Positions 101 to 19,610 are shown, counted from the whole stretch's first letter. The stretch is 63,003 bases of DNA, filler included, from 6 parts of 6 records of this genome joined end to end with filler, not necessarily neighbours in it; one strand, 5' to 3'. Made by a program: numbers and translations. Notes: a model not told the origin generated them from the sequence alone.

Positions 101-589
101 ATGGCAAAGTATAATCTCACAGTAAATGGCAAAAAGTATAATGTAGATGCTGATGCCGACACTCCCCTTTTGTGGGTCATTCGTGACCACGTAGGTTTAA
201 AAGGCACAAAGTTTGGTTGTGGTATGGCACTTTGCGGTGCTTGTACTGTTCATTTGGACGGTCAACCGATTCGTTCATGTTCAACGCCAATCTCTACGTT
301 GAAAGCTACTAACAAAATCACGACGATTGAAGGTATTTCTGTGAATACCGATAGCGCTGTTCAAAAAGCTTGGATTGAAGAACAAGTACCACAATGTGGT
401 TATTGTCAGTCAGGGCAAATCATGTCGGCAGTAGCTTTATTGAAGGAAAAGAGTAATCCAACAGACTCAGATATTGATGAAGCGATGTCAGGAAATATTT
501 GTCGTTGTGGTACTTATCCACGTATTCGTAAGGCAATTCATAGAGCAGCCGAATTAATGAAAGATGGTGGTAATTCTACTGGCAAGTAA
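101..589 (+). CDS. (2Fe-2S)-binding small subunit, IorA/CoxS family
   Basis: [14 protein letters not shown] and QCGYCQSG...GNICRCGTY iron-sulfur motifs; adjacent to Mo-binding subunit. Confidence 0.95.
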
Positions 590-607
590 TTTTAAAACCT
601 CAAAAAC

Positions 608-2773
608 ATGACACAGCAAAACTCCCGCAGAGACTTTATAAAAGCCAGCACCATGTTGGCAATTGGTTTCTCATTACCATCAATCGGTAAAGCAGAAAGC
701 CTTCACAAGATTGATACAAGCAGTGCAAGTGCTTTAGGAATAGAATTAAATCCTTACATTTTAATTAATGACGATGGTAAAATTATCCTTTTCAATGCAC
801 GTCCAGATATGGGACAAGGTACTTATCAATCGCTTCCGCTTTTAATTGCAGAAGAATTGGAAGTTACTTTAGACCAAGTAGAAATCAGAAATACAGACGG
901 ACAAGGAAAATATGGCGCACAGCTTTCGGGCGGTTCGTCGTCAGTGCGTACTCGTTGGCTACCAATGCGTAAAGCAGGTGCGGCAGTCAAAGAAATGTTG
1001 ATTACCGCTGCCAGTAAAAAATGGCAAGTACCTGTTTCTGAATGCTATGCTTCAGAAGCAAAAGTATTTCATAAACCATCCGGGAAATCTTATACTTATG
1101 GTGAATTAGTAGAAGAAGCTTCAAAATTAGAAATTCCGAAAGAACCAAAACTAAAAGACCAAAAGGATTTTAAATTGTTGGGAAAATCGGTGCCACGTCC
1201 AGAAATTCCTTCAAAAGTAAATGGAACAGCCGTTTTCGGGATAGATTCAGACATTCCGGGAATGTTATATGCCAGTATCGAACGCTCACCAACCATTCAT
1301 GGGAAAGTTGTTAGCTTCGATGGTTCGGCAGCAATGAAAGTAAAAGGCGTAAAATATGTAGTAAAAACAGAACGTAAAATGCCTCATAAAGCAGTTGAAG
1401 CAGTAGCTGTAATTGCTGATACATATTGGGCAGCCTTGAAAGGCAGAAAAGCTTTGAAAATCAATTGGGATGCACAAGGTTCTGATAAAATTTCAACCGA
1501 TGCTTATTTTGAAAACTTAAGAACTTTAGCCAAAACGGAAGGTGTAGAATACAAAAATGAAAAAGTAGGCGATTTCAATAAAAGTTTTGAAAGTGCTACA
1601 AAAAAAGTAGAAGCACAGTACGAAACACCTTTCTTGGCACATGCACCACTCGAACCAGAAAATGCTACCGTTTGGGTAAAAGGTGATAAAGTAGAAATTT
1701 GGGCGCCTATTCAAGGACCTGACGGATTGATTCCACAAGTAGCACAATATTTGAAAATCAAACCTGAAAATGTAAAAGTAAACGTGCCATTTATGGGCGG
1801 TGCTTTCGGAAGAAAAGCTTATTTCGATTACGTGTTGGAAGCGGCAAATCTTTCAAAACAAGTAAATGCCCCTGTAAAAGTAATTTGGACACGTGAAGAT
1901 GATACTACACAAGGCCCATTCCGTCCGGGAATGTTATCGGCAATGCAAGGCGGTTTGGATGAAAAAGGCAATGTTGTAGCACACAATCATAAAATCGTGG
2001 GTAGCTCAATTCAACACCAAGTATTTGGTAATCCATTGAAAAATGCACCAGATGATTGGGCAATTGAAACAGCCAACACAGAAGATAGTCCTTATGATTT
2101 TGCAAGTCGTAAAGCAAGTTTCCATTTAGCCGAAACTGAGATTCCAATTCTTTGGTGGCGTTCAGTTTATTCTTCAACAACGGCTTTCGGACAAGAATGT
2201 TTTGTTGATGAATTAGCACACGCTGCTAAAACCGACCCATTGGCTTTCCGTTTAGATATGTTGGCAGATGCTCCAAGATTTAGCAGAGTATTACAAACCT
2301 TGGCGAAAAAAACCAATTATCATCAAAAACTTCCCGAAGGACAAGCTATTGGGATAGCTGTTGCTCGTTCATTTGGAACAATTGTAGCTCATGCAGTTAC
2401 CGTTTCAAAAAATGGCAAAGGTGTTAAAATCGAAAAAGTAGTTTCGGTAATCGACTGCGGAATGACGGTGAATCCAGACAATATCAAAGCCCAAACAGAA
2501 GGCAATATTGTAATGGGTTTAACCGCTGCCATTAAAAATGGCATTACTATCAAAGACGGACTAACCGAACAAAGTAATTTCCATCAATACAATGTTTTGA
2601 GAATTAACGAAATGCCAAAAACAGAAGTGTATATTGTAGATAATCAAGAAGCACCAGGAGGCGTAGGCGAACCAGGTTTACCACCATTTGCTCCTGCACT
2701 TTGCAATGCGATTTATAATTTAACAGGTACAAGAATTCGTACTTTACCTTTTGATATTGATAATATTGGGTAG
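608..2773 (+). CDS. Xanthine dehydrogenase family molybdopterin-binding subunit (IorB-like), Tat-exported
   Basis: SRRDFIK twin-arginine motif; DMGQG, GGSSS, GGAFGR, GGVGEPG motifs. Confidence 0.93.
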   Translation: MTQQNSRRDFIKASTMLAIGFSLPSIGKAESLHKIDTSSASALGIELNPYILINDDGKIILFNARPDMGQGTYQSLPLLIAEELEVTLDQVEIRNTDGQGKYGAQLSGGSSSVRTRWLPMRKAGAAVKEMLITAASKKWQVPVSECYASEAKVFHKPSGKSYTYGELVEEASKLEIPKEPKLKDQKDFKLLGKSVPRPEIPSKVNGTAVFGIDSDIPGMLYASIERSPTIHGKVVSFDGSAAMKVKGVKYVVKTERKMPHKAVEAVAVIADTYWAALKGRKALKINWDAQGSDKISTDAYFENLRTLAKTEGVEYKNEKVGDFNKSFESATKKVEAQYETPFLAHAPLEPENATVWVKGDKVEIWAPIQGPDGLIPQVAQYLKIKPENVKVNVPFMGGAFGRKAYFDYVLEAANLSKQVNAPVKVIWTREDDTTQGPFRPGMLSAMQGGLDEKGNVVAHNHKIVGSSIQHQVFGNPLKNAPDDWAIETANTEDSPYDFASRKASFHLAETEIPILWWRSVYSSTTAFGQECFVDELAHAAKTDPLAFRLDMLADAPRFSRVLQTLAKKTNYHQKLPEGQAIGIAVARSFGTIVAHAVTVSKNGKGVKIEKVVSVIDCGMTVNPDNIKAQTEGNIVMGLTAAIKNGITIKDGLTEQSNFHQYNVLRINEMPKTEVYIVDNQEAPGGVGEPGLPPFAPALCNAIYNLTGTRIRTLPFDIDNIG

Positions 2774-2814: not shown

Positions 2815-2857
2815 AAAGTGCCGTATTCTAGGATAACATCTTAGAATACGGCACTTT
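2815..2857. terminator. Intrinsic, probably bidirectional terminator
   Basis: AAAGTGCCGTATTCTA ... TAGAATACGGCACTTT inverted repeat between convergent genes. Confidence 0.8.
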
Positions 2858-2904
2858 ATTTTATAGCTGCAAAATCATTACAATAGTAATCATCAAAAAA
2901 CACC

Positions 2905-3741
2905 TCACTTAATAAAAATCTGTAAATCAAACACTTGAAGAATAAATACAGCATAACCATGTAATAATAAGTAACTATGTATCAAAGGGAAATAACAACT
3001 AATAAAAGCGAGAAAAAATGTATTTAATCCCATAATTATAGCATTTGTCAAATGAAACAATACCCCAATTACAATAAAACTAATAAATACCTCCTGATTA
3101 CAAAAAATACTAATAAAGAAAAAAGCCTCCCAACAAAAAACAATCCATGATAGCAATCTAGATATTCTAATGTTTTTGGATAATAAATTGTGCCCATAAG
3201 TATTCCCGTAAATATCATTTCCCATAATTCCAACTAATGCCTCTCCATTCCTCCATACTTTGGCAGTTAGTTTGGCATAACCTGAAATAAAATAACTAAA
3301 CAATAATTGTAATGAAATAAATGAAAATACAATATCTCTTACAATAATAGTATTATGGATATAAACCAATAATAAACAAGTAGCTATAATGAAAATTACT
3401 TGATCAGAGCCATCCATTCCATAAGCACTTCTTGCAGAAAAAATCAGCAAACTTAAGGCTATAATAAAATAGCAAGGAGTTAGAATAAACGTAAGGTCGG
3501 TAATAATTGAAATTAAGGAGGTAATGAGAAAAATAACTGTTACTATTTTTATCCCATTGTCAGAACATAGCTTATCAAATATTGGGATTTTTATAAAAAT
3601 AGGATGTCTTAATTGTAAAACATCCCAACTTAATAAATCATGCTTCGGCTTTTTATAAAGCAATTTTTCAAGTGCATAAACAATACAACAAATGCCACAA
3701 ATTAATTTTGTTGAGCTAAGTATTTCTAGTTGAATGTTCAT
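2905..3741 (-). CDS. HTTM / SdpB-like polytopic membrane protein
   Basis: Several TM segments; motifs DGSDQ, YFISGYAKL, WRNGEAL, FHLTNAIIMGLNTFF resemble HTTM/SdpB hallmarks. Confidence 0.75.
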   Translation of the reverse strand: MNIQLEILSSTKLICGICCIVYALEKLLYKKPKHDLLSWDVLQLRHPIFIKIPIFDKLCSDNGIKIVTVIFLITSLISIITDLTFILTPCYFIIALSLLIFSARSAYGMDGSDQVIFIIATCLLLVYIHNTIIVRDIVFSFISLQLLFSYFISGYAKLTAKVWRNGEALVGIMGNDIYGNTYGHNLLSKNIRISRLLSWIVFCWEAFFFISIFCNQEVFISFIVIGVLFHLTNAIIMGLNTFFLAFISCYFPLIHSYLLLHGYAVFILQVFDLQIFIK

Positions 3742-4258
3742 CTTTGATTAAATGTACTTTAGATAAAAGTAATAATTCAGTGTTTTCACTTTTATTAATA
3801 GAACAGCTTGCCATTAAAGCGAACTGAATAAATGAGCATTCATCATTAGTATTGATTTGGGAAATGTAATTAAGTACTGTTAAATACGAAATTGAGCCTA
3901 TTATTACATTTTCATTATCCTTGTTCGTGGATGCTACGTTGGCTAATTCAATAGTTATATCTAAAAATGATTTTCGGGATTTTCGTCCTGGATTCCATAT
4001 CGCATCAAGTAAGCTTCTAGGAGGTAAAAGTTGTATTTCACGCCAAGGAGAAGTATCGCCGTTTTGCAAAAACTCACGATGTAAAATATGATAATTATGC
4101 TTAATTGGAGTTGGGCAAAAGAAACGCCAATCAGGAATAATACCAAAGGGGTCTTTTACTCTTAGCTTATAATTACCAGTCAAAGGAAAATGAAACACAA
4201 CTGTTAATATAAGCCAAGATGAAAAGAACACAAGTATCGCATATTCGTATATATCCAT
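3716..4258 (-). CDS. SdpA-like membrane-anchored protein
   Basis: One N-terminal TM helix followed by IPDWRFFCPTP (W-x-F-F-x-P-x-P type motif); overlaps the SdpB-like gene by 26 nt. Confidence 0.65.
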   Translation of the reverse strand: MDIYEYAILVFFSSWLILTVVFHFPLTGNYKLRVKDPFGIIPDWRFFCPTPIKHNYHILHREFLQNGDTSPWREIQLLPPRSLLDAIWNPGRKSRKSFLDITIELANVASTNKDNENVIIGSISYLTVLNYISQINTNDECSFIQFALMASCSINKSENTELLLLSKVHLIKDEHSTRNT

Positions 4259-4270
4259 TAAACAAATTTA

Positions 4271-5068
4271 TTAATATTTATGAATTAGAAAGTTTCTACG
4301 AATTTTCAATATTTCAGAGGCAGCAGCAGACACACTGATTTGCTTTAAAACAGCATCAGGTAAATGAATATCATAAGGATCAAAAGCATAATTTGGAATC
4401 ACAAAATCTTCATTCCGTTGAGGGCAGCATATACCAGTAGCAAGACTTACAGCAACAGCAATAGCAATTAAACCTGTAGCATAACCGAGTGGATTTGTAC
4501 CAATGTTCAATTCAAATTGATTAACTGGTAGTTGTTTGAGAATATCGGCTTCAGCTTTCGTTAAATTAGGTTCGTGTAAAACAATAAACCCTTGAAGTTC
4601 TTCTTTTAAATTTTCTTTCTTGTAATGTTGGATTAATTTAAAATCTTCTTCTGATATTCTCCCACCATTATAAGGAAAAGATGCACCAACTACTTTTATT
4701 TTTTCTGGAACAAAAAAACCTTCTAAAAGTGTCTTCCCTCCATATCGTACTGAAGCAAGTAAATTCTGTTTTTTTTGAAGCAACACAGCATCTTCTAATG
4801 CTATTTCTTTAATGCCGCTAAATTGCTTCATAAACTTTTCTATAATTATTTGCTCTGTTCCATTCCCCTCTTTTAGATATTTGTACATTTCATCTAAGAG
4901 AGGTTCTCCTTTTTTGGCAATAAACAATGTAGCTGTCCCTTGTTGGGTTAATAGCATTTTACTTTTTTTAAGATCAGGTTGGTACTTTAAAACTTCTAAA
5001 CCAGAAGACTTAAAAGACCTTGATTCTGTTTCAATCGTAGCCAATTTCAATAGTTCTAATGTTTCCAT
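4271..5068 (-). CDS. Hypothetical protein; putative precursor/substrate with hydrophobic Cys-Cys core
   Basis: 265 aa; first gene of the operon; one hydrophobic stretch (aa ~190-216) holds the only two Cys. Confidence 0.55.
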   Translation of the reverse strand: METLELLKLATIETESRSFKSSGLEVLKYQPDLKKSKMLLTQQGTATLFIAKKGEPLLDEMYKYLKEGNGTEQIIIEKFMKQFSGIKEIALEDAVLLQKKQNLLASVRYGGKTLLEGFFVPEKIKVVGASFPYNGGRISEEDFKLIQHYKKENLKEELQGFIVLHEPNLTKAEADILKQLPVNQFELNIGTNPLGYATGLIAIAVAVSLATGICCPQRNEDFVIPNYAFDPYDIHLPDAVLKQISVSAAASEILKIRRNFLIHKY

Positions 5069-5176
5069 TTTTTTATGATTTAATTGTTAAAAGAATTATT
5101 CAATTCTAGCATGGAGTAATGCGCATTCTTTATGAATGATGCTAATATCCATTATTATAACTCATAAGATAAATTG

Positions 5177-5219
5177 AAAAAAAGACGAGTTTGTATATAA
5201 TGAAATCATTCAAACTCAT
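5177..5219 (-). terminator. Putative leader terminator/attenuator
   Basis: Minus strand AUGAGUUUG...CAAACUCGU stem followed by C and a U7 tract, between the promoter and the ATG at 5068. Confidence 0.5.
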
Positions 5220-5349
5220 TCAGGAAGTGGTTATGCTATTGAAGTGGTCGTTGAAACTTTATAAGGCATGATAATCTCAAGTAAATATATACTCATTCAT
5301 CCTCATTTACCTGCGAACGTCAACTACTTGAGTCTATGAATAGACGTTA

Positions 5350-5381
5350 CAAACATAAAAAAATAATATATTAATGTGCAA
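5350..5381 (-). promoter_or_regulatory. Bacteroidota housekeeping-sigma promoter
   Basis: Minus strand TTG-N21-TATGTTTG matches the -33/-7 (TTG / TAnnTTTG) consensus. Confidence 0.55.
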
Positions 5382-5535
5382 GAAATCAGTTAGAAAGTGA
5401 GTCAATTTTTATTAAGCGGTAGTTTATCTAAGATTTTTATTCTTAATGCGAGACTAACATGGATACAAAAGCTAGACTATCGTTAAAAAGGTGGTTAAAA
5501 TTTCACAGAAAGTACAACAATTAAAATAGGTGCTC

Positions 5536-5586
5536 AAAAAAAAACAAGGATATACACTCTAATAAATATTAAAGTGTATATCCTTG
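5536..5586 (-). terminator. Intrinsic terminator of the MFS gene
   Basis: CAAGGATATACACT ... AGTGTATATCCTTG stem with a poly-U tract on the minus strand. Confidence 0.8.
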
Positions 5587-5609
5587 AATCTCTGTTAAGT
5601 TTTTTAATA

Positions 5610-13930: not shown

Positions 13931-13973
13931 GGTGAATTGGCGGGCACCGCCAAGAGGGGGCGCGAGCGCCCCC

Positions 13974-14612
13974 TTAGCCTTTCGCCTTTTCGGCCAATTC
14001 GTCGATCACGCCCTGCCACAGATGCACCGGCTGCGCGCCCGAAACCACATAGTGCTGCGCGATCAGGAAGGTCGGCACCGCCGTCACACCCTTTTGTCGC
14101 GCGTCGCGATCACGCGCCAAAAGGTCGTCGCGGTCGGCATCGGTCGCCAGAAGCCGCGCCACGGCGGCGGCGTCGAGGCCCACCTCTCCCGCCAGCCGCG
14201 CCAGCGTGGCCGCATCGCCCACATCCAGACCCTCGCGCCAATGCGCACGGAACAGGCGTGACACCATCGCCGTCTGGCGCCCCTCGATCCCGGCCCAATG
14301 GATCAGCCGGTGCGCATCCATCGTGTTGGGCAGCACGGACACCTTGTCGATCTCCATCTCGGCCCCGGCGTCTTTTGCCGCCTTGGCCACGTTCTGCATC
14401 ATGGAAAGCGCCCGCTCGCGCCCGCCGAATTTGCCCGCCAGATACTCCACATGCCCCACCCCTTCGCGCGGCATGTCGGGGTTGAGCTGGAACGGATGCC
14501 ATTCGATGCGGAACGGATGGTCGGCCCGGCTTTCCAGCGCACGGTCCAGATGGGTCTTGCCGATGTAGCACCACGGGCAAACGATGTCGGAGAAGATGTC
14601 GAGACGGATCAC
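13974..14612 (-). CDS. DsbA family oxidoreductase (FrnE-like)
   Basis: FSDIVCPWCYIG; PFQLNP; GVTAVPTF; VSGAQP. Confidence 0.93.
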   Translation of the reverse strand: MIRLDIFSDIVCPWCYIGKTHLDRALESRADHPFRIEWHPFQLNPDMPREGVGHVEYLAGKFGGRERALSMMQNVAKAAKDAGAEMEIDKVSVLPNTMDAHRLIHWAGIEGRQTAMVSRLFRAHWREGLDVGDAATLARLAGEVGLDAAAVARLLATDADRDDLLARDRDARQKGVTAVPTFLIAQHYVVSGAQPVHLWQGVIDELAEKAKG

Positions 14613-16090
14613 GAAGCAGCCCTTTCGGCATGAAGCGCCCTAAGGGCGCGGCGGTTGAGCTTGTTGTTGGCCGAACGGGGCAGGGCGTCAACCTGCATCC
14701 ACAGCCGCGGCTGCTTCCATCGCGCAAGCGAGAGAGCGGCACGTTCCTGCAAGGCCGCCTCGTCGGCGTCACCCGTATAAAAACCCGCGATCACCCGCAC
14801 GCCAGGCCTCACCTCGACCTCCGTCACCGCCACCTCGGCCAGCCCGGAAAAGGCCGCCTCGACCTCCAGCGGCGACACGCGAAACCCGCCCGCATTCATC
14901 ATCTCGTCGGCGCGTCCCAGATAGGTGATCGCCCCGTCCGCCGCCTGCCGCACCAGATCGCCGGTCACGAACCATTCGCCTCGAAACCGCGCCTGCGTAG
15001 CCGCCTCGTCGCCCAGATAGCCCAGCATCAGCCCCGGATCGCTGCGATGCACGGCCAGAACACCTTCGCCGTCCACGCCGTCGAGCACCATCACCCGCCG
15101 TCCGTCCTGAGCGTATCCGACAGCCCCTCGCGGCGCAGGCCGCAGCGGCGAGCCGGAAACAAAGGTCGAACATTCCGACATTCCCAGCGCCTCGTGCACA
15201 TCCGTCCCAGTTCGTGCCCGCCACTCGTCGGCCAGTGCCACGGGCATCGTCTCGCCCGCCACAAGCGCGTGGCGCAGGCGCGGCAGCGCGGACAAGGCCC
15301 CGCGCAGCACCTGCCGCACCACACCGGGTGCTGCGGCAAAGATCGTCGCGTCAAACCGCTTGAGCAAAAGCCCCAGCGCCTCGACCGGCACGCCCGCCGC
15401 TGGCACCAAGGCGGTCGCGCCCACGGTCCACGGGTCCATCAGACCCGTGCCCAGCGTATAGGTCCAGTTCATCGCTCCCGCATGCAGCAGGCGGTCGGCC
15501 TCGCCCAACCCTTCCCAGCCCTGATGCATCATGCGCCGCGCCATGATCGCCCGATGCGCGTGGCCCACCGCCATCGCCCGCCCGCTGGTTCCGCTGGTAA
15601 AGACCGCATAGGCCAGCCGTTCCGGATCGTCCATCGCCCAGCCGCAGGGCGCCAACGTCTCCATCGCCAGAATATCGCGCGCCGCCATGACGGGGCAGGG
15701 CAGCGGGTCGGGCAGCGCCACGCCGTCCTCCGCCACGATCAGCGCAGGCCCGACCACGCCCGCCATCCGCGTGATCTCGGCCACCGTCAGCGAGGCCGAG
15801 GTCGGCACCGGCACCAGCCCCGCCGCGATCGCTCCCAGAAACAGCACCGGAAAGGCCACGCCATTCCCGACCCGCATCAGCACGCGGTCTCCCGGTTGCA
15901 GTCCCCGCGCCAAAAGCCCCGTCCCGCATCCGCGCACCGCCGCTTCCAGCCGCGCATAGCTCCACCGCTCGGCCCCCGTCTGGCGCAGCACCTGCAACGC
16001 GATCTTGTCGGGCAAACGCGCGGCACTTCCCTCCAGCACATGACGGGCAAGGTTGAACGGCGCGGGGCAGGGGTTGGCGGGCTTTGTCAT
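14609..16090 (-). CDS. Class I adenylate-forming enzyme (acyl-CoA ligase)
   Basis: FTSGTSG P-loop, GMSE, TGD, GRADE, LPRSANNKLNR; 4-nt overlap with the DsbA gene. Confidence 0.92.
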   Translation of the reverse strand: MTKPANPCPAPFNLARHVLEGSAARLPDKIALQVLRQTGAERWSYARLEAAVRGCGTGLLARGLQPGDRVLMRVGNGVAFPVLFLGAIAAGLVPVPTSASLTVAEITRMAGVVGPALIVAEDGVALPDPLPCPVMAARDILAMETLAPCGWAMDDPERLAYAVFTSGTSGRAMAVGHAHRAIMARRMMHQGWEGLGEADRLLHAGAMNWTYTLGTGLMDPWTVGATALVPAAGVPVEALGLLLKRFDATIFAAAPGVVRQVLRGALSALPRLRHALVAGETMPVALADEWRARTGTDVHEALGMSECSTFVSGSPLRPAPRGAVGYAQDGRRVMVLDGVDGEGVLAVHRSDPGLMLGYLGDEAATQARFRGEWFVTGDLVRQAADGAITYLGRADEMMNAGGFRVSPLEVEAAFSGLAEVAVTEVEVRPGVRVIAGFYTGDADEAALQERAALSLARWKQPRLWMQVDALPRSANNKLNRRALRALHAERAAS

Positions 16091-16154
16091 GGCCCCGTTC
16101 TAACGCCGCCCTCCACGGTTGCAAGCAAGCGCGCCGCCCTGTAATGGCCTCTCC

Positions 16155-16778
16155 ATGGCCGGAAGCGACCCCAAATCCATGATCCGCATCGCCCGCGAAA
16201 GCGGCGAGGATGCGCCTGTGGCTCCGCTCGACCTTGGCTTGCGTGTCCGCGAACTCCGCAAGGCCAAGGGCTGGACGCTGGAACAGGCCGCAGTGCAGGC
16301 GGGACTTGCCCGATCTACCCTGTCCAAAATCGAGAACGGCCAGATGTCGCCCACCTACGAGGCGCTCAAGAAACTGGCCGAGGGCCTGTCGATTTCTGTC
16401 CCGCAGCTTTTCACCCCGCCGTCCCGCGCGCAGGTCTCGGGCCGGATGACCACCACCAAGGCGGGCGAAGGAGCGGGCCACGCCACGGCCACCTACGAAC
16501 ACGAACTCCTCGCCGCCCAGATGACCCGCAAGCAGATGCTGCCCTACCGCGCCCGCATCCGCGCCCGCGACGTGGCAGAATTCAACGGCTGGGTCCGCCA
16601 CGACGGCGAGGAATTCCTGTATGTCCTGACAGGCGTGGTCCGGCTTTACACCGAATTCTACGAACCCGTAGACCTGCGGCGCGGCGACAGCGCCTATTAC
16701 GACGCCAGCATGGGCCACAACGTCATCAGCCTGTCCGACGAGGACGCGACCATCCTCTGGGTCACGTCGCTGGTCTAG
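16155..16778 (+). CDS. XRE-family HTH regulator with cupin domain
   Basis: TLEQAA...STLSKIENG HTH; HDGEEFLYVLTG...GDSAYYDASMGH cupin; start uncertain. Confidence 0.9.
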   Translation: MAGSDPKSMIRIARESGEDAPVAPLDLGLRVRELRKAKGWTLEQAAVQAGLARSTLSKIENGQMSPTYEALKKLAEGLSISVPQLFTPPSRAQVSGRMTTTKAGEGAGHATATYEHELLAAQMTRKQMLPYRARIRARDVAEFNGWVRHDGEEFLYVLTGVVRLYTEFYEPVDLRRGDSAYYDASMGHNVISLSDEDATILWVTSLV

Positions 16779-16799
16779 CGCGACGGTTCGAACGTCACG

Positions 16800-17540
16800 T
16801 CAAACCGGCATCCCGCGTGGCCCGCCGTCCTCGTCACCGGCCAGATCGTCGTCGTCCAGATCGTCGTCGTCGAGATCGTCGTCGTCGAGATCGTCGTCGT
16901 CCAGATCGTCCTCCTCGTCCAGTTCCTGATCCGACAGGTCGTCGTCCTCGGCCCCGTCCGCCTCGTCATCGTCGAGCGCGTCGTCTTCCACCTCGTCGTC
17001 TTCCAGTTCTTCGTCGTCCACGTCATCCTCGTCCATCGCGTCCTCCTCCATCTCCACACCTTCCGGGACGTCGAGCGCAGCCTCGACGTCCTGCCCCGGA
17101 TCGTTCCCCGCCGACCCGATGACCATATCCGACGGCCCGCCCCCCACATCGCCGATCGCCCTCTGGCAGGCATCGGCACAGGCGCGGCAGGCCTCGGCGC
17201 AGATGCGGCAATGGTCGTGCATGGCGGCGTGGCGTTCGCATTCCTCGGCGCACAAATGGCAGGCCGTGGCGCAGACCGACAGCATCTGCGCGATCAACCG
17301 CTCGTTCGACCCCGTCCGCCGAGTCGCCAGAAGCCCCGTGGTCGCACAGATATCCGCACAATCGAGGCAAAGCCGCACGCATTGCCGCAGCCGCTCGACC
17401 ATATCCTCGGCCAGACAGGCATCGGCGCAGCTGGTGCAGGACTGCGCGCAGGACAGCGTCTCTTCGATGGCCGCGATCAGCAGCCTTGCGGTGCTGCCTT
17501 TCACATCGGGATGGGTGGCGATGATCTCTTCTGCGCGCAT
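16800..17540 (-). CDS. Four-helix-bundle copper-binding protein (Csp3/DUF326) with long acidic tail
   Basis: 17 Cys in Cx2C/Cx3C repeats; GAGGAG RBS before ATG at 17540; D/E-rich C-terminus. Confidence 0.82.
   Translation of the reverse strand: MRAEEIIATHPDVKGSTARLLIAAIEETLSCAQSCTSCADACLAEDMVERLRQCVRLCLDCADICATTGLLATRRTGSNERLIAQMLSVCATACHLCAEECERHAAMHDHCRICAEACRACADACQRAIGDVGGGPSDMVIGSAGNDPGQDVEAALDVPEGVEMEEDAMDEDDVDDEELEDDEVEDDALDDDEADGAEDDDLSDQELDEEDDLDDDDLDDDDLDDDDLDDDDLAGDEDGGPRGMPV
16842..16916. repeat. 15-bp tandem repeat encoding DDDDL
   Basis: (C/G)AGATCGTCGTCGTC x4 plus one degenerate unit. Confidence 0.9.
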
Positions 17541-17656
17541 GGGTCGGCTCCTCGGGCAAGATTGCTCCCGCCAACGCCGCCCCCGCCCCCCTGTTCCGCG
17601 CAAATGCAAGGGGCCGGACATCGCTGTCCGGCCCCTGCCAACCGGCCAAGCATTGC

Positions 17657-17779
17657 TCAGCCGCCGAACCATCCCTGCACGGTCTGGGCACCCTGCGACA
17701 CATCCTGCCCTACGCCCGAAACCGTGTTGCATCCGGTCAGGGCCAAAGCCATCACCCCCAGCAGAACCAATCGTTTCAT
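17657..17779 (-). CDS. Entericidin A/B family lipoprotein
   Basis: 40 aa MKRLVLLGVMALALTGCNTVSGVGQDVS...; lipobox LTGC; RBS GAGGAG upstream. Confidence 0.88.
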   Translation of the reverse strand: MKRLVLLGVMALALTGCNTVSGVGQDVSQGAQTVQGWFGG

Positions 17780-17786
17780 CTCGTCA

Positions 17787-19610
17787 TCACTCCTCATACC
17801 ACCAGACATCCGGCTGCCAGCCCGGCCAGTCGCCATAGATCGGCAACCGCTCGGGGTGGCGCAGGCCCTTGGCATAGGCCAGCCGCGACACATCCGAATA
17901 CCAGATGGGTATGACATAGCGCCCCGTGGTCAAGACACGATCGAGTGCCTCGACATGCGCGTCGAACTCGGCAGGGTCCGCCGCCGCCAGCATCCCCGCG
18001 ATCAGCGCCTCGGCTGCGGGCGCGTTCATCCCCATCCAGTTGCGCGAGCCGGGTTCGGTCACACCCGCCGCACCCCAGTAAAGCGTCTGCTCGTTGCCCG
18101 GCGACAGCGACAACGACCGCACGTAATGGGTCATGTCGAAATCGTAATTGGTGGTCCGCTCCTTGTATTGCGCCGAATCGACCGTGGTCACCCGCGCGTC
18201 TATCCCCAGCCGCTTCAGCGCTTCGACATAGATGGTCGCGGCATTGATGATGTCGTCGGCCCCGTTGGTGAGCAGGATCTCGAAGCTGAATGCCTCGCCC
18301 GCCGCATTCTGCAACACGCCGTCCGTCACCGTCCATCCGGCCTCCTCGAGCAACTTGTTCGCCGTCCGCACATTCTTGCGGTTCGGCTCGGTCCCGTCCG
18401 AGGCGGGCAGGCTATATCCCTCCAGCGCACCGGGCAGCAGATCGGCCTTGAACGGCCCGAGCAACTCGGCCACGCGCCCCTCGGCAGGCGCACCCGCCTG
18501 CATTCCCAACGTCGAATTGCCGAAATAGCTGGTGATGCGCGGCGGAATGCCCCCGTTCAGCGTCTCGTTCACCAGTTCGAAGTTGAACGCATAGGTCAGC
18601 GCCTCGCGCACCCGCCAATCGGAGAACATCGGCTTGCGCGTGTTGAACACGAACCCCTCGATCCCCGACGGGCGCTGGTGCGGGATCACCTCCTTTATGA
18701 CCTTGCCTTCGGCCACCGCCGGAAAGGCGTAGTTCTGCTCCCACTTCACCGGATTGGTCTCGCGCCAGCTGGTGATATCGCCCGCCTTGAACGCCTCAAA
18801 CACCACTCCCGCATCGCCGAAATACTCGAACCGCACCTCGTCGAGGTTGTATAGCCCGCGGTTGAATGGCAGATCCTTGCCCCACCAGTCTGGATTGCGC
18901 TTGTAAGCGATCGATTTCCCCGGATCGACCGATGCGACCACATAAGGCCCCGACCCGATGATCGGATCGAGCGAGGACGCGGTGAAATCCTTGCCTTCCC
19001 ATTGCGCCTTCTTCAGCACCGGCCGCAGGCCCAGAATCAGCGGCAACTCCCGGTCGGCCGTGTTGAACGTGAACTTCACCGACCGCTCGCCCGTCACCTC
19101 GGTCTTGGCGATCTTCTTCCAGGCGGTCGCATAGCGCGGCTGCCCCAGCGTGCCGAGCGTCTCGAACGACCAGACCACATCCTCGACCGTCACGGGCGAT
19201 CCGTCAGAGAATCGGGCCGCCGGATTGAGCGTGAATTCCACCCAATTGCGCGCTTCATCGGTACGAATCGACTCGGCCAACAGCCCGTAAAGCGTGAAAG
19301 GCTCGTCAATAGACCGGCCCATCAAAGTCTCCACCGTATAGCCGGTGATCCCGCTCGGTGCGATTCCGTTCACGATGAAGGGGTTGAGCGAATCGAACCC
19401 GCCACTCTCGCCGAAGATAATCCTGCCGCCCTTCGGTGCGTCGGGGTTGGCATAGGGGAGCGACACAAAATCAGGGGGCAAAGCCGGTTCGCCATACATA
19501 GCTATGCCATGCCGGGGCGCCGCCTCCTCTGCCGATCCCACCGCGATAAAACCCCAAAGTGATACGGCTACCGCCGCCCCGCGCATCGCTTGAAAAACGA
19601 CCTGTCTCAT
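17787..19610 (-). CDS. ABC transporter substrate-binding protein, family 5 (YejA-like)
   Basis: HGIAMYGEP, YANPDAPKGG, FDSLNPF, GSGPY, FSDWRVREAL. Confidence 0.92.
   Translation of the reverse strand: MRQVVFQAMRGAAVAVSLWGFIAVGSAEEAAPRHGIAMYGEPALPPDFVSLPYANPDAPKGGRIIFGESGGFDSLNPFIVNGIAPSGITGYTVETLMGRSIDEPFTLYGLLAESIRTDEARNWVEFTLNPAARFSDGSPVTVEDVVWSFETLGTLGQPRYATAWKKIAKTEVTGERSVKFTFNTADRELPLILGLRPVLKKAQWEGKDFTASSLDPIIGSGPYVVASVDPGKSIAYKRNPDWWGKDLPFNRGLYNLDEVRFEYFGDAGVVFEAFKAGDITSWRETNPVKWEQNYAFPAVAEGKVIKEVIPHQRPSGIEGFVFNTRKPMFSDWRVREALTYAFNFELVNETLNGGIPPRITSYFGNSTLGMQAGAPAEGRVAELLGPFKADLLPGALEGYSLPASDGTEPNRKNVRTANKLLEEAGWTVTDGVLQNAAGEAFSFEILLTNGADDIINAATIYVEALKRLGIDARVTTVDSAQYKERTTNYDFDMTHYVRSLSLSPGNEQTLYWGAAGVTEPGSRNWMGMNAPAAEALIAGMLAAADPAEFDAHVEALDRVLTTGRYVIPIWYSDVSRLAYAKGLRHPERLPIYGDWPGWQPDVWWYEE

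Follow-up and report, generated by a model that had tools for sequence, protein, structure and literature searches.

What kind of system do three tightly coupled genes in the genome of a freshwater Arcicella bacterium encode? The genes lie on the minus strand at positions 2905 to 5068 of a stretch of 63,003 nucleotides, which is made of six parts of six records joined with filler and is called the window here, and they are numbered 1 to 3 in the order of the operon. A preliminary description, made from the sequence alone, had proposed an SdpABC-like operon in which the product of gene 1 is matured by the membrane proteins encoded by genes 2 and 3. That comparison holds for gene 3, which is related to SdpB and the HTTM proteins; it fails for a homology of gene 2 to SdpA and of gene 1 to SdpC. 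We tentatively propose that the three-gene islet encodes a topologically inverted SdpAB-like machine which would modify or excise the hydrophobic segment of the gene 1 protein, and we put the chance of this reading slightly below even. What is new here is a reversal of charge: genes 2 and 3 have their lysines and arginines distributed in the opposite way to SdpA/SdpB and to DUF5819/HTTM pairs.

Gene 3 is a distant SdpB/HTTM relative modelled with the membrane fold of GGCX

A profile of eight sequences (A7), which left out P0012 (98% identical) and the 203-aa fragment P0016, was used to compare gene 3 with known families. In hhalign this profile scored 98.3% against three Bacteroidota SdpB proteins (E 1.9e-14) and 98.0% against four HTTM partners of DUF5819 proteins (E 2.2e-13). 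The match of gene 3 to the SdpB model TIGR04033 is confined to residues 136-250 and amounts to 28.6 bits (E 9.9e-7) for a cut-off of 178.4, whereas bona fide Bacteroidota SdpB proteins reach 204-296 bits. Gene 3 has no Pfam match, and neither it nor seven relatives matched PF05090 at E<=1 or E<=10; the DUF5819-partner HTTM proteins of loci L015 and L016 score 27.9 and 24.6 bits against this model, which has a cut-off of 27.7.

The AlphaFold2 (AF2) model of gene 3 (predicted local distance difference test, pLDDT, 87.3) contains eight long helices, and its top 15 matches in the PDB are all human gamma-glutamyl carboxylase (GGCX), the vitamin-K-dependent carboxylase (Foldseek probability 1.00, TM-score 0.56-0.62). 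In the VIA comparison the GGCX entries gave Z 13.2-16.4 with a root-mean-square deviation of 3.8-4.7 over 209-237 residues, and the next entry had Z 11.4 over 121 residues. Sequence identity between gene 3 and GGCX is 11-14%, and a search of PDB sequences with the gene 3 profile returned no match. The resemblance to GGCX covers essentially all of gene 3 as a membrane fold; gene 3 differs in having no lumenal domain in the chain and in its predicted orientation. Profiles and model together support, at the superfamily level, the claim that gene 3 is a distant SdpB/HTTM homologue.

Within the gene 3 family the residues D110, G111, D113, Y150, G154, K157, W163, G166, A168, F229, H230, M237-N240, and F242 do not vary, and across the full set of 15 aligned HTTM-type proteins seven positions are invariant (Q145, Y150, K157, W163, G166, H230, and F242). 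In the VIA superposition model residues 1-260 correspond to GGCX 57-315, and from this range K157 would be the counterpart of GGCX K218. The PDB titles of GGCX entries name K217A/K218A mutants. K218 presumably has a functional role in GGCX, and the invariant lysine of gene 3 falls by position at K217/K218. A second correspondence lies within the HTTM proteins: the spacing of K157-x5-W163 and the later F242 matches that of Lys189, Trp195, and Phe273, residues that belong, according to the accessible text of a preprint, to the predicted quinone pocket of a complex of HTTM and DUF5819 proteins (10.64898/2026.08.19.745780).

Gene 2 is a distant DUF5819-type protein

Eight residues are invariant in the gene 2 family (W15, P42, D43, R45, F46, F47, P49, and P51). 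Gene 2 had been put forward as the SdpA counterpart. It has no match to any Pfam or NCBIfam model at E<=1 (PF17418, TIGR04034, and PF19136 included), and the SdpA models TIGR04034 and PF17418 found no match in genome G001, which carries a copy of the islet, either. In hhalign the gene 2 profile scored about 1% against three SdpA proteins (E 0.056), the W-x-FF and basic motifs aligning at nearly the same positions, and 89.7% against four Bacteroidota DUF5819 proteins (E 1.8e-6, 135 columns). The gene 2 homologue P0011 scored 18.4 bits against PF19136 (E 0.0034; cut-off 27.1 bits), and the protein atlas returned only unnamed clusters for gene 2, apart from one weak cluster (score 0.81) in which 12% of the members carry DUF5819. 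On these profile comparisons gene 2 is a distant DUF5819-type protein that lies below the membership defined by the model; the name SdpA-like fits its architecture and position, not its family membership. SdpA and DUF5819 compared with each other scored only 11% in hhalign with thin profiles, and therefore we claim no SdpA-DUF5819 link from these data.

Pairs of HTTM and DUF5819 proteins have been proposed as split bacterial relatives of the vitamin-K-dependent carboxylase (10.64898/2026.08.19.745780, accessible text). Genes 2 and 3 resemble such pairs in that the two genes are adjacent, with the single-pass protein first and the HTTM protein second, and in sharing the Lys-x5-Trp and the later Phe. 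They differ in scoring below the Pfam cut-offs, in forming a separate clade, and in their reversed charge; they are also preceded by a 265-aa protein of an unnamed family, for which the accessible part of the preprint's description has no equivalent (10.64898/2026.08.19.745780). Gene 3, with its HTTM carboxylase fold and Lys-x5-Trp quinone pocket, and gene 2, as a DUF5819-type subunit, may form a two-subunit membrane enzyme, built in two parts like SdpB+SdpA and the other HTTM+DUF5819 pairs.

The charge distribution of genes 2 and 3 predicts a cytoplasm-facing enzyme

The positive-inside rule was applied to homologous loops. In the gene 3 clade, the N-terminus, loops L2-3, L4-5, and L6-7, and the C-terminus together carry 0-3 Lys+Arg, and loops L1-2, L3-4, L5-6, and L7-8 carry 7-18 (10 out of 10 sequences). 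For SdpB and the partners of DUF5819 the same two loop sets carry 7-16 and 2-7, respectively (seven out of seven). These counts hold with helix boundaries set by hand and with those of the AF2 model. The single-pass proteins show the corresponding pattern: the N-terminal tails of the gene 2 family contain no Lys or Arg in six out of six members, with 2-3 such residues directly after the helix, and the tails of SdpA and DUF5819 proteins contain 2-4 in the six that could be parsed (one SdpA sequence was left unparsed by the motif). In a tree of 17 HTTM-type rows the gene 3 clade is a single branch with a support of 99/97, and SdpB falls outside it.

The reversal in both genes 2 and 3 leads us to predict an enzyme that faces the cytoplasm. 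The DGSDQ and K157-W163 loops of gene 3 would then be cytoplasmic, where the same loops are predicted to be external in the canonical proteins. The active site of GGCX is lumenal, in agreement with external loops in the canonical proteins. A cytoplasm-facing enzyme would match the protein encoded by gene 1, which has no signal peptide and is predicted to be cytoplasmic.

Gene 1 belongs to a large unnamed family with a variable hydrophobic segment

An exhaustive profile search with gene 1 returned 470 representatives at E<=1e-3, 343 at E<=1e-10, and 92 at E<=1e-30; a word-based search returned five clusters. Nearly all members are unnamed metagenome proteins, and one comes from a Chloroflexia metagenome-assembled genome. 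An alignment (A3) was built from 66 near-full-length sequences chosen among 150 listed relatives. No Pfam family was found in common between any of these 66 sequences, and the protein atlas gave no usable match for gene 1. The elements are, in order, an N-terminal domain (N-domain), a helix, a hydrophobic segment variable in sequence and length, and a C-terminal helix that ends all of the proteins. The conserved positions of the N-domain are R17, G44, and a P-Y-N-G-G loop; P167, L169, E173, and A176 in the helix before the segment and A250, R257, and R258 in the C-terminal helix are near-invariant in the alignment. In some relatives the segment is set off from the C-terminal helix by a long acidic spacer of low complexity. 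None of 154 family sequences has a signal-peptide-like N-terminus.

The AF2 model of gene 1 (pLDDT 87.9; predicted template modelling score, pTM, 0.86) shows a beta-rich domain and a C-terminal helix, and is confident for residues 1-190 and 237-264 and poor for residues 200-229. Since both are modelled confidently, the Cys-bearing segment, rich in Ala, Val, Thr, and Gly, lies between two folded elements. This family scan and model bear out the earlier account of gene 1 as a protein with no signal peptide, a folded N-domain of about 190 aa, and an internal hydrophobic segment with a follower helix. Foldseek found no PDB match to the model at E<=1e-3, and the best hits of a wide VIA search were generic beta-sandwiches at Z 3.0, by which a new fold is not proven.

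Across the 66 sequences the segment consists of 19.5% Ala, 14.6% Val, 10.1% Thr, and 4.8% Cys. Cys is about 12-fold enriched there (0.4% outside the segment); at least one is present in 63 out of 66 sequences and exactly two in 35, often bracketing the segment. By patterns written for this analysis, the two commonest segment motifs account for 38 and 29 of the 154 family sequences, six are of the Arcicella type and 79 are unclassified. In the Arcicella subclade the segment is the best conserved part, with 71% identity versus 33% for the N-domain in the deepest pair (the window against P0005).

A threonine-rich hydrophobic target together with an HTTM-type protein and a small partner recalls the linaridins, a class of peptides made by the ribosome and modified after translation. 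The accessible text of the linaridin literature describes LinG as a transmembrane protein of the HTTM type and LinL as a protein without known function that helps to define the class (10.1101/2020.07.09.196543, PMC9927463). Genes 3 and 2 could accordingly be read as LinG (or LinH) and LinL, which would dehydrate Thr or Ser within the core of a precursor of unusual size, and the Thr content of the segment across the family, 10.1% against 4.5% elsewhere, would suit that chemistry. The islet has neither a LinE-type alpha/beta hydrolase nor a linaridin decarboxylase, methyltransferase, ABC transporter, or any other linaridin gene; the precursor would be a folded protein of 265 aa instead of a short peptide, and the Arcicella segment contains only two Thr. 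Known linaridin clusters, as far as the same sources go, are actinobacterial except for two (10.1101/2020.07.09.196543, PMC9927463), and the host here is a member of the Bacteroidota. We consider a linaridin-type pathway improbable.

Comparison with SdpABC

The islet resembles SdpABC of Bacillus subtilis and its paralogue YitPOM in being a three-gene unit made of a polytopic HTTM-type protein, a single-pass partner, and a protein with a hydrophobic region. SdpC and YitM are reported to resemble each other over the first three quarters of the protein and to diverge in the hydrophobic toxin region, and to need SdpA/B or YitP/O, respectively (PMC6818787, accessible text). The gene 1 family follows the same pattern of a conserved N-domain and a divergent segment. 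The preliminary description had counted the first position of gene 1 as a difference from SdpC. The position is as described, and it also equals the order of the Bacteroidota operons: three genomes of the phylum (loci L009, L010, and L011) carry bona fide sdpC-sdpA-sdpB operons, with SdpA and SdpB above the NCBIfam cut-offs and the toxin precursor gene first, as against the sdpABC order of Bacillus subtilis. Other features set the islet apart from SdpABC. Gene 1 lacks a signal peptide, and a conserved follower helix is modelled confidently beside its N-domain; gene 2 stands closer to DUF5819 than it does to SdpA; the membrane proteins are predicted to be oriented the other way round; and SdpI and SdpR are missing. 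The last point had been made before and is confirmed, because the insert holds only three open reading frames (ORFs) and a spacer devoid of credible ORFs, and the flanking genes are those of a major facilitator superfamily (MFS) protein and a molybdopterin oxidoreductase.

It follows that an ordinary SdpABC orthologue, making a secreted SDP-like cannibalism toxin, is highly improbable. The TIGR04033 match of gene 3 and the Bacteroidota-like gene order speak for it. Against it, the gene 3 score is a small fraction of the cut-off, genes 1 and 2 have no match to TIGR04032, TIGR04034, or PF17418 at E<=1 (TIGR04032 being the SdpC model), the signal peptide is lacking, the charge bias is reversed, the gene 3 clade stands apart from SdpB, and true SdpCAB operons that score above the cut-offs do occur in the phylum. 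No islet protein exceeds a Pfam or NCBIfam threshold for SdpA, SdpB, or SdpC, and therefore we place the islet with the SdpAB and HTTM-DUF5819 kind of system and not within SdpABC.

Among 401 Bacteroidota genomes, canonical SdpA was found in five at E<=0.01 (three above the cut-off) and DUF5819 in four (three above the cut-off). One DUF5819 locus (L015:483-2919) has tandem genes for two proteins (103 and 105 aa) whose N-termini resemble signal peptides and which contain hydrophobic stretches rich in glycine; DUF5819 and HTTM genes come directly after them, and the locus looks like a separate candidate peptide-maturation operon. At L016, L017, and L018, from three genera of one family, the DUF5819 and HTTM pair stands beside a gene for about 400-500 aa, and no precursor-like gene is visible.

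The islet is an accessory unit inserted next to an MFS gene

Similar or near-identical copies of the islet occur in Arcicella rosea, A. lustrica (gene 1 protein 100% identical), and A. aquatica (87%). Gene 1 was present in three out of 25 genomes of the genus and in none of 16 other sampled genomes of the order. An MFS orthologue with at least 89% identity is found in six genomes (G001, G014, G020, G007, G011, and G019). In the empty sites of G020 and G007, no more than about 60 bp separate the MFS gene from a convergent 405-aa gene, which from its translation we take to be ribBA; in the filled sites of G001 and G014 the three genes stand between the MFS gene and ribBA. By blastn the insertion lies between the MFS stop codon and the terminator shared by MFS and ribBA, and the insert measures about 2.8 kb. 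The window and G001 are 99.0% identical over 2797 bp, and the match stops about 4 bp past the gene 3 stop codon. Beyond gene 3 the flank varies, being an oxidoreductase gene in the window and A. aquatica and ribBA in G001 and G014. Because the genes are coupled and are inserted as a block relative to the empty sites, they form one accessory unit, probably acquired horizontally.

Ribonucleic acid (RNA) contigs from three libraries of two studies are confined to positions 3898-5167. At a depth of 2-4 they cover gene 1 in full, some 100 nt before it, and the 5' part of gene 2, and one spans the junction of genes 1 and 2; no contig lies on gene 3 or the MFS gene. They give a weak hint that the three-gene operon is transcribed. 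The contigs end upstream of a hairpin inside gene 3, at a depth too low to interpret.

Scans of genome contigs and metagenome contigs for gene 1 loci yielded only Arcicella or near-identical loci. Islet proteins were not found in viral contigs (two profiles searched), and tblastn of P0047 against plasmids gave no match. This distribution bears on a further possibility, that the islet is an anti-phage or abortive-infection module in which a gene 1 peptide is unleashed on the producer's own membrane. A small low-GC (guanine-plus-cytosine) accessory islet of patchy distribution with no immunity gene would be in keeping with such a role, as would the 290-aa PD-(D/E)XK-family transposase gene (PF12784, E 2.3e-33) that adjoins gene 3 in A. 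aquatica (L006:10387-11259), where it sits between the islet and the oxidoreductase genes; the window does not have it. The three proteins and two family members had no PADLOC or PHROG matches, the viral contigs were negative, no neighbouring defence genes were identified, and the insertion site lies between housekeeping genes. We regard an anti-phage function as quite improbable.

Related operons and the part played by gene 1

At E<=1e-5 the gene 3 profile found matches in 13 of the 401 Bacteroidota genomes, with full-length members of the clade in G001, G086, and G096. In the G096 operon (L037:1094-3295) the gene for a 154-aa protein comes first, homologues of gene 2 (hhalign 98.5%) and of gene 3 come next, and the gene for a DCC1-like thiol-disulfide oxidoreductase (PF04134, E 6.4e-25) is last; the operon thereby ties the HTTM clade to thiol chemistry. 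An N-terminal helix opens the 154-aa protein, which continues with an Ala/Gly/Val/Thr-rich stretch and ends with a C-terminal helix. Its residues 2-25 align, non-significantly, on gene 1 residues 165-188 and match P167, L169, E173, and A176. It looks like gene 1 minus its domain.

That gene 1 encodes the substrate, as first proposed, gains support because of the conservation pattern of its family, the minimal gene 1-like protein of G096, and the predicted cytoplasm-facing topology of genes 2 and 3. We infer that gene 1 would be a dedicated cytoplasmic client of the enzyme formed by genes 2 and 3. The helix that precedes the segment would dock on genes 2/3; the segment would then enter the membrane-embedded active site through the cytoplasmic leaflet and would there be altered chemically, excised, or both, yielding a membrane-active peptide, a step that we liken to the action of SdpAB on the hydrophobic C-terminal domain of SdpC. 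The chemistry could be a quinol/O2-driven proton abstraction, thiol chemistry, or cleavage.

The main rival makes gene 1 a stable third subunit or adaptor, tethered by a hydrophobic hairpin, of a complex that acts elsewhere, for example in quinone-linked thiol/disulfide chemistry or on a lipid or small molecule. Several features fit such a subunit. The C-terminal helix and the N-domain are both confident with the hydrophobic part between them, as in a monotopic anchor, and the two Cys that bracket the segment in 35 out of 66 sequences could be a redox pair. The G096 operon ends with the DCC1-like gene, an HTTM partner fused to a DCC1-like domain has been described (10.64898/2026.08.19.745780, accessible text), and the islet lacks an exporter, a protease, and an immunity gene. 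On the other side, a plain anchor would not be expected to be the best-conserved part of a protein with 33% overall identity, nor to fall into discrete sequence classes, and the acidic low-complexity spacers before the C-terminal helix of some relatives fit a displayed loop better. G086 and G096 also have gene 2/3-like pairs without the gene 1 domain; therefore the domain is not an obligatory subunit. We consider a tethered subunit rather unlikely, if still a serious alternative.

A number of observations weigh against the inverted SdpAB-like machine. The islet, with its three ORFs, has no gene for a protease, an exporter, or an immunity protein. The topology argument is the positive-inside rule applied to 10 + 7 sequences. 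Gene 1 showed no homology to three SdpC-like proteins (hhalign 2.9%), nor gene 2 any significant homology to SdpA. Model confidence is low in the hydrophobic segment, which could be a plain membrane anchor. Among the 401 Bacteroidota genomes the gene 1 family occurs in one, versus three with the gene 3 clade, and the gene 2/3-like pair of G086 (hhalign 70% for the gene 2-like protein) has no gene 1-like neighbour. The alignment of the 154-aa protein with gene 1 is non-significant (hhalign 0.8%, E 0.072) and is a single case. Finally, the RNA contigs are shallow and leave gene 3 uncovered, and RNA libraries can contain DNA.

A broader form of the inverted-machine reading may be considered, in which a clade of HTTM and DUF5819-type proteins has been flipped in the membrane to serve cytoplasmic clients, and gene 1 founds a mostly metagenomic class of protein-scaffolded precursors with a Cys-bracketed core and a P-x-L-x-x-x-E-x-x-A-L helix, modified or excised inside the membrane; this would be a new route to membrane-active peptides in several phyla. 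We regard this generalization as doubtful. No earlier description of the gene 1 family or of the putatively inverted HTTM clade was found in the literature on DUF5819, HTTM, SdpABC, linaridins, and bacterial vitamin K-dependent carboxylases, the supplements of two bioRxiv preprints aside.

The operon might serve as a compact test case for the chemistry of SdpA/SdpB-type, HTTM/DUF5819, and linaridin-related proteins: it has three genes, a folded client that can be tagged, one obvious candidate for a catalytic lysine, and a cultivable, non-pathogenic host. If the proposed inversion is true, it would be a rare change of side by a whole member of a polytopic enzyme family together with its partner and substrate; the carboxylase fold could then act on cytoplasmic proteins. 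Through this operon a family of at least 470 clusters, without a Pfam model or a match to a solved structure, also acquires its first functional context.

Operon layout and neighbouring features

The coordinates of the islet and its elements are collected in Table 1. The ORF listing gives the coordinates of the preliminary description for the three coupled genes. Genes 1 and 2 are 12 nt apart (4259-4270), genes 2 and 3 overlap by 26 nt (3716-3741), and gene 1 has no in-frame start upstream that could lengthen it. The AT-richness relative to the flanks that had been noted is likewise found: the GC content is 0.323 in gene 1, 0.319 in gene 2, 0.275 in gene 3, and 0.272 in the upstream spacer, compared with 0.357 in the MFS gene, 0.390 in the oxidoreductase gene, and 0.416 in the whole window. 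The motifs quoted for genes 2 and 3 are present and conserved in homologues. Three terminator-like sites were found against 1.0 +/- 1.1 in shuffled sequences. Two of them (2815-2857 on the plus strand and 5586-5545 on the minus strand) bound the islet as described, the second having been placed at 5536-5586; the third, a hairpin with a T run, lies inside gene 3 (3627-3600, minus strand).

Table 1. Features of the three-gene islet and its borders in the window.
Feature	Position	Strand	Basis or remark
Hairpin of terminator type behind the MFS gene, at the upstream border of the islet	5545..5586	-	19-pair stem, then T run
Palindromic hairpin of terminator type, separating gene 3 from the convergent oxidoreductase gene	2815..2857	.	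20-pair stem
AT-rich upstream spacer (541 bp), presumed promoter and 5' untranslated region	5069..5609	-	No convincing small ORF
Low-GC three-gene islet, insertion of about 2.8 kb	2901..5600	-	blastn of empty and filled sites; GC content
Gene 1 (265 aa), candidate client/precursor of a large unnamed family	4271..5068	-	ORF, profile search, model
Gene 1 residues 165-188, conserved helix before the hydrophobic segment, candidate recognition element	4505..4576	-	Conservation
Gene 1 residues 194-217, hydrophobic segment with terminal ATGICCP	4418..4489	-	pLDDT below 50-67, Cys enrichment
Gene 1 residues 237-264, conserved C-terminal helix	4277..4360	-	pLDDT 87-98
Gene 2 (180 aa), single-pass membrane protein of DUF5819 type	3716..4258	-	hhalign against DUF5819
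Gene 2 N-terminal transmembrane helix, about residues 7-26	4181..4240	-	6/6 family members
Gene 2 WRFFCPTP; signature W-x-[LF]-F-x-P common to DUF5819 and SdpA	4106..4129	-	Alignments
Gene 3 (278 aa), eight-helix membrane protein with HTTM/GGCX membrane fold	2905..3741	-	hhalign, AF2 model, Foldseek, VIA
Gene 3 K157-x5-W163, presumed counterpart of the quinone-pocket Lys/Trp	3253..3273	-	Invariant in 15/15 HTTM-type sequences
Gene 3 DGSDQ loop, residues 110-114	3400..3414	-	Motif conserved

The upstream spacer contains a promoter-like site at 5180-5151 and is 73% identical to that of A. aquatica across 375 bp. A small ORF upstream of gene 1 was considered as the substrate; only featureless ORFs of 21-29 aa are present in this poorly conserved spacer, and the candidate was ruled out, non-rigorously. 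Convergent with the islet, window positions 101-2773 encode two subunits, one [2Fe-2S] and one molybdopterin-binding, of an enzyme of the aldehyde-oxidase/xanthine-dehydrogenase type (Pfam Fer2_2 and MoCoBD_1/2). An Rfam search of the whole window, the region 13937-19610 included, gave no match; that region has several long ORFs that overlap one another across the two strands, such as 14609-16090 (minus) and 14630-16144 (plus).

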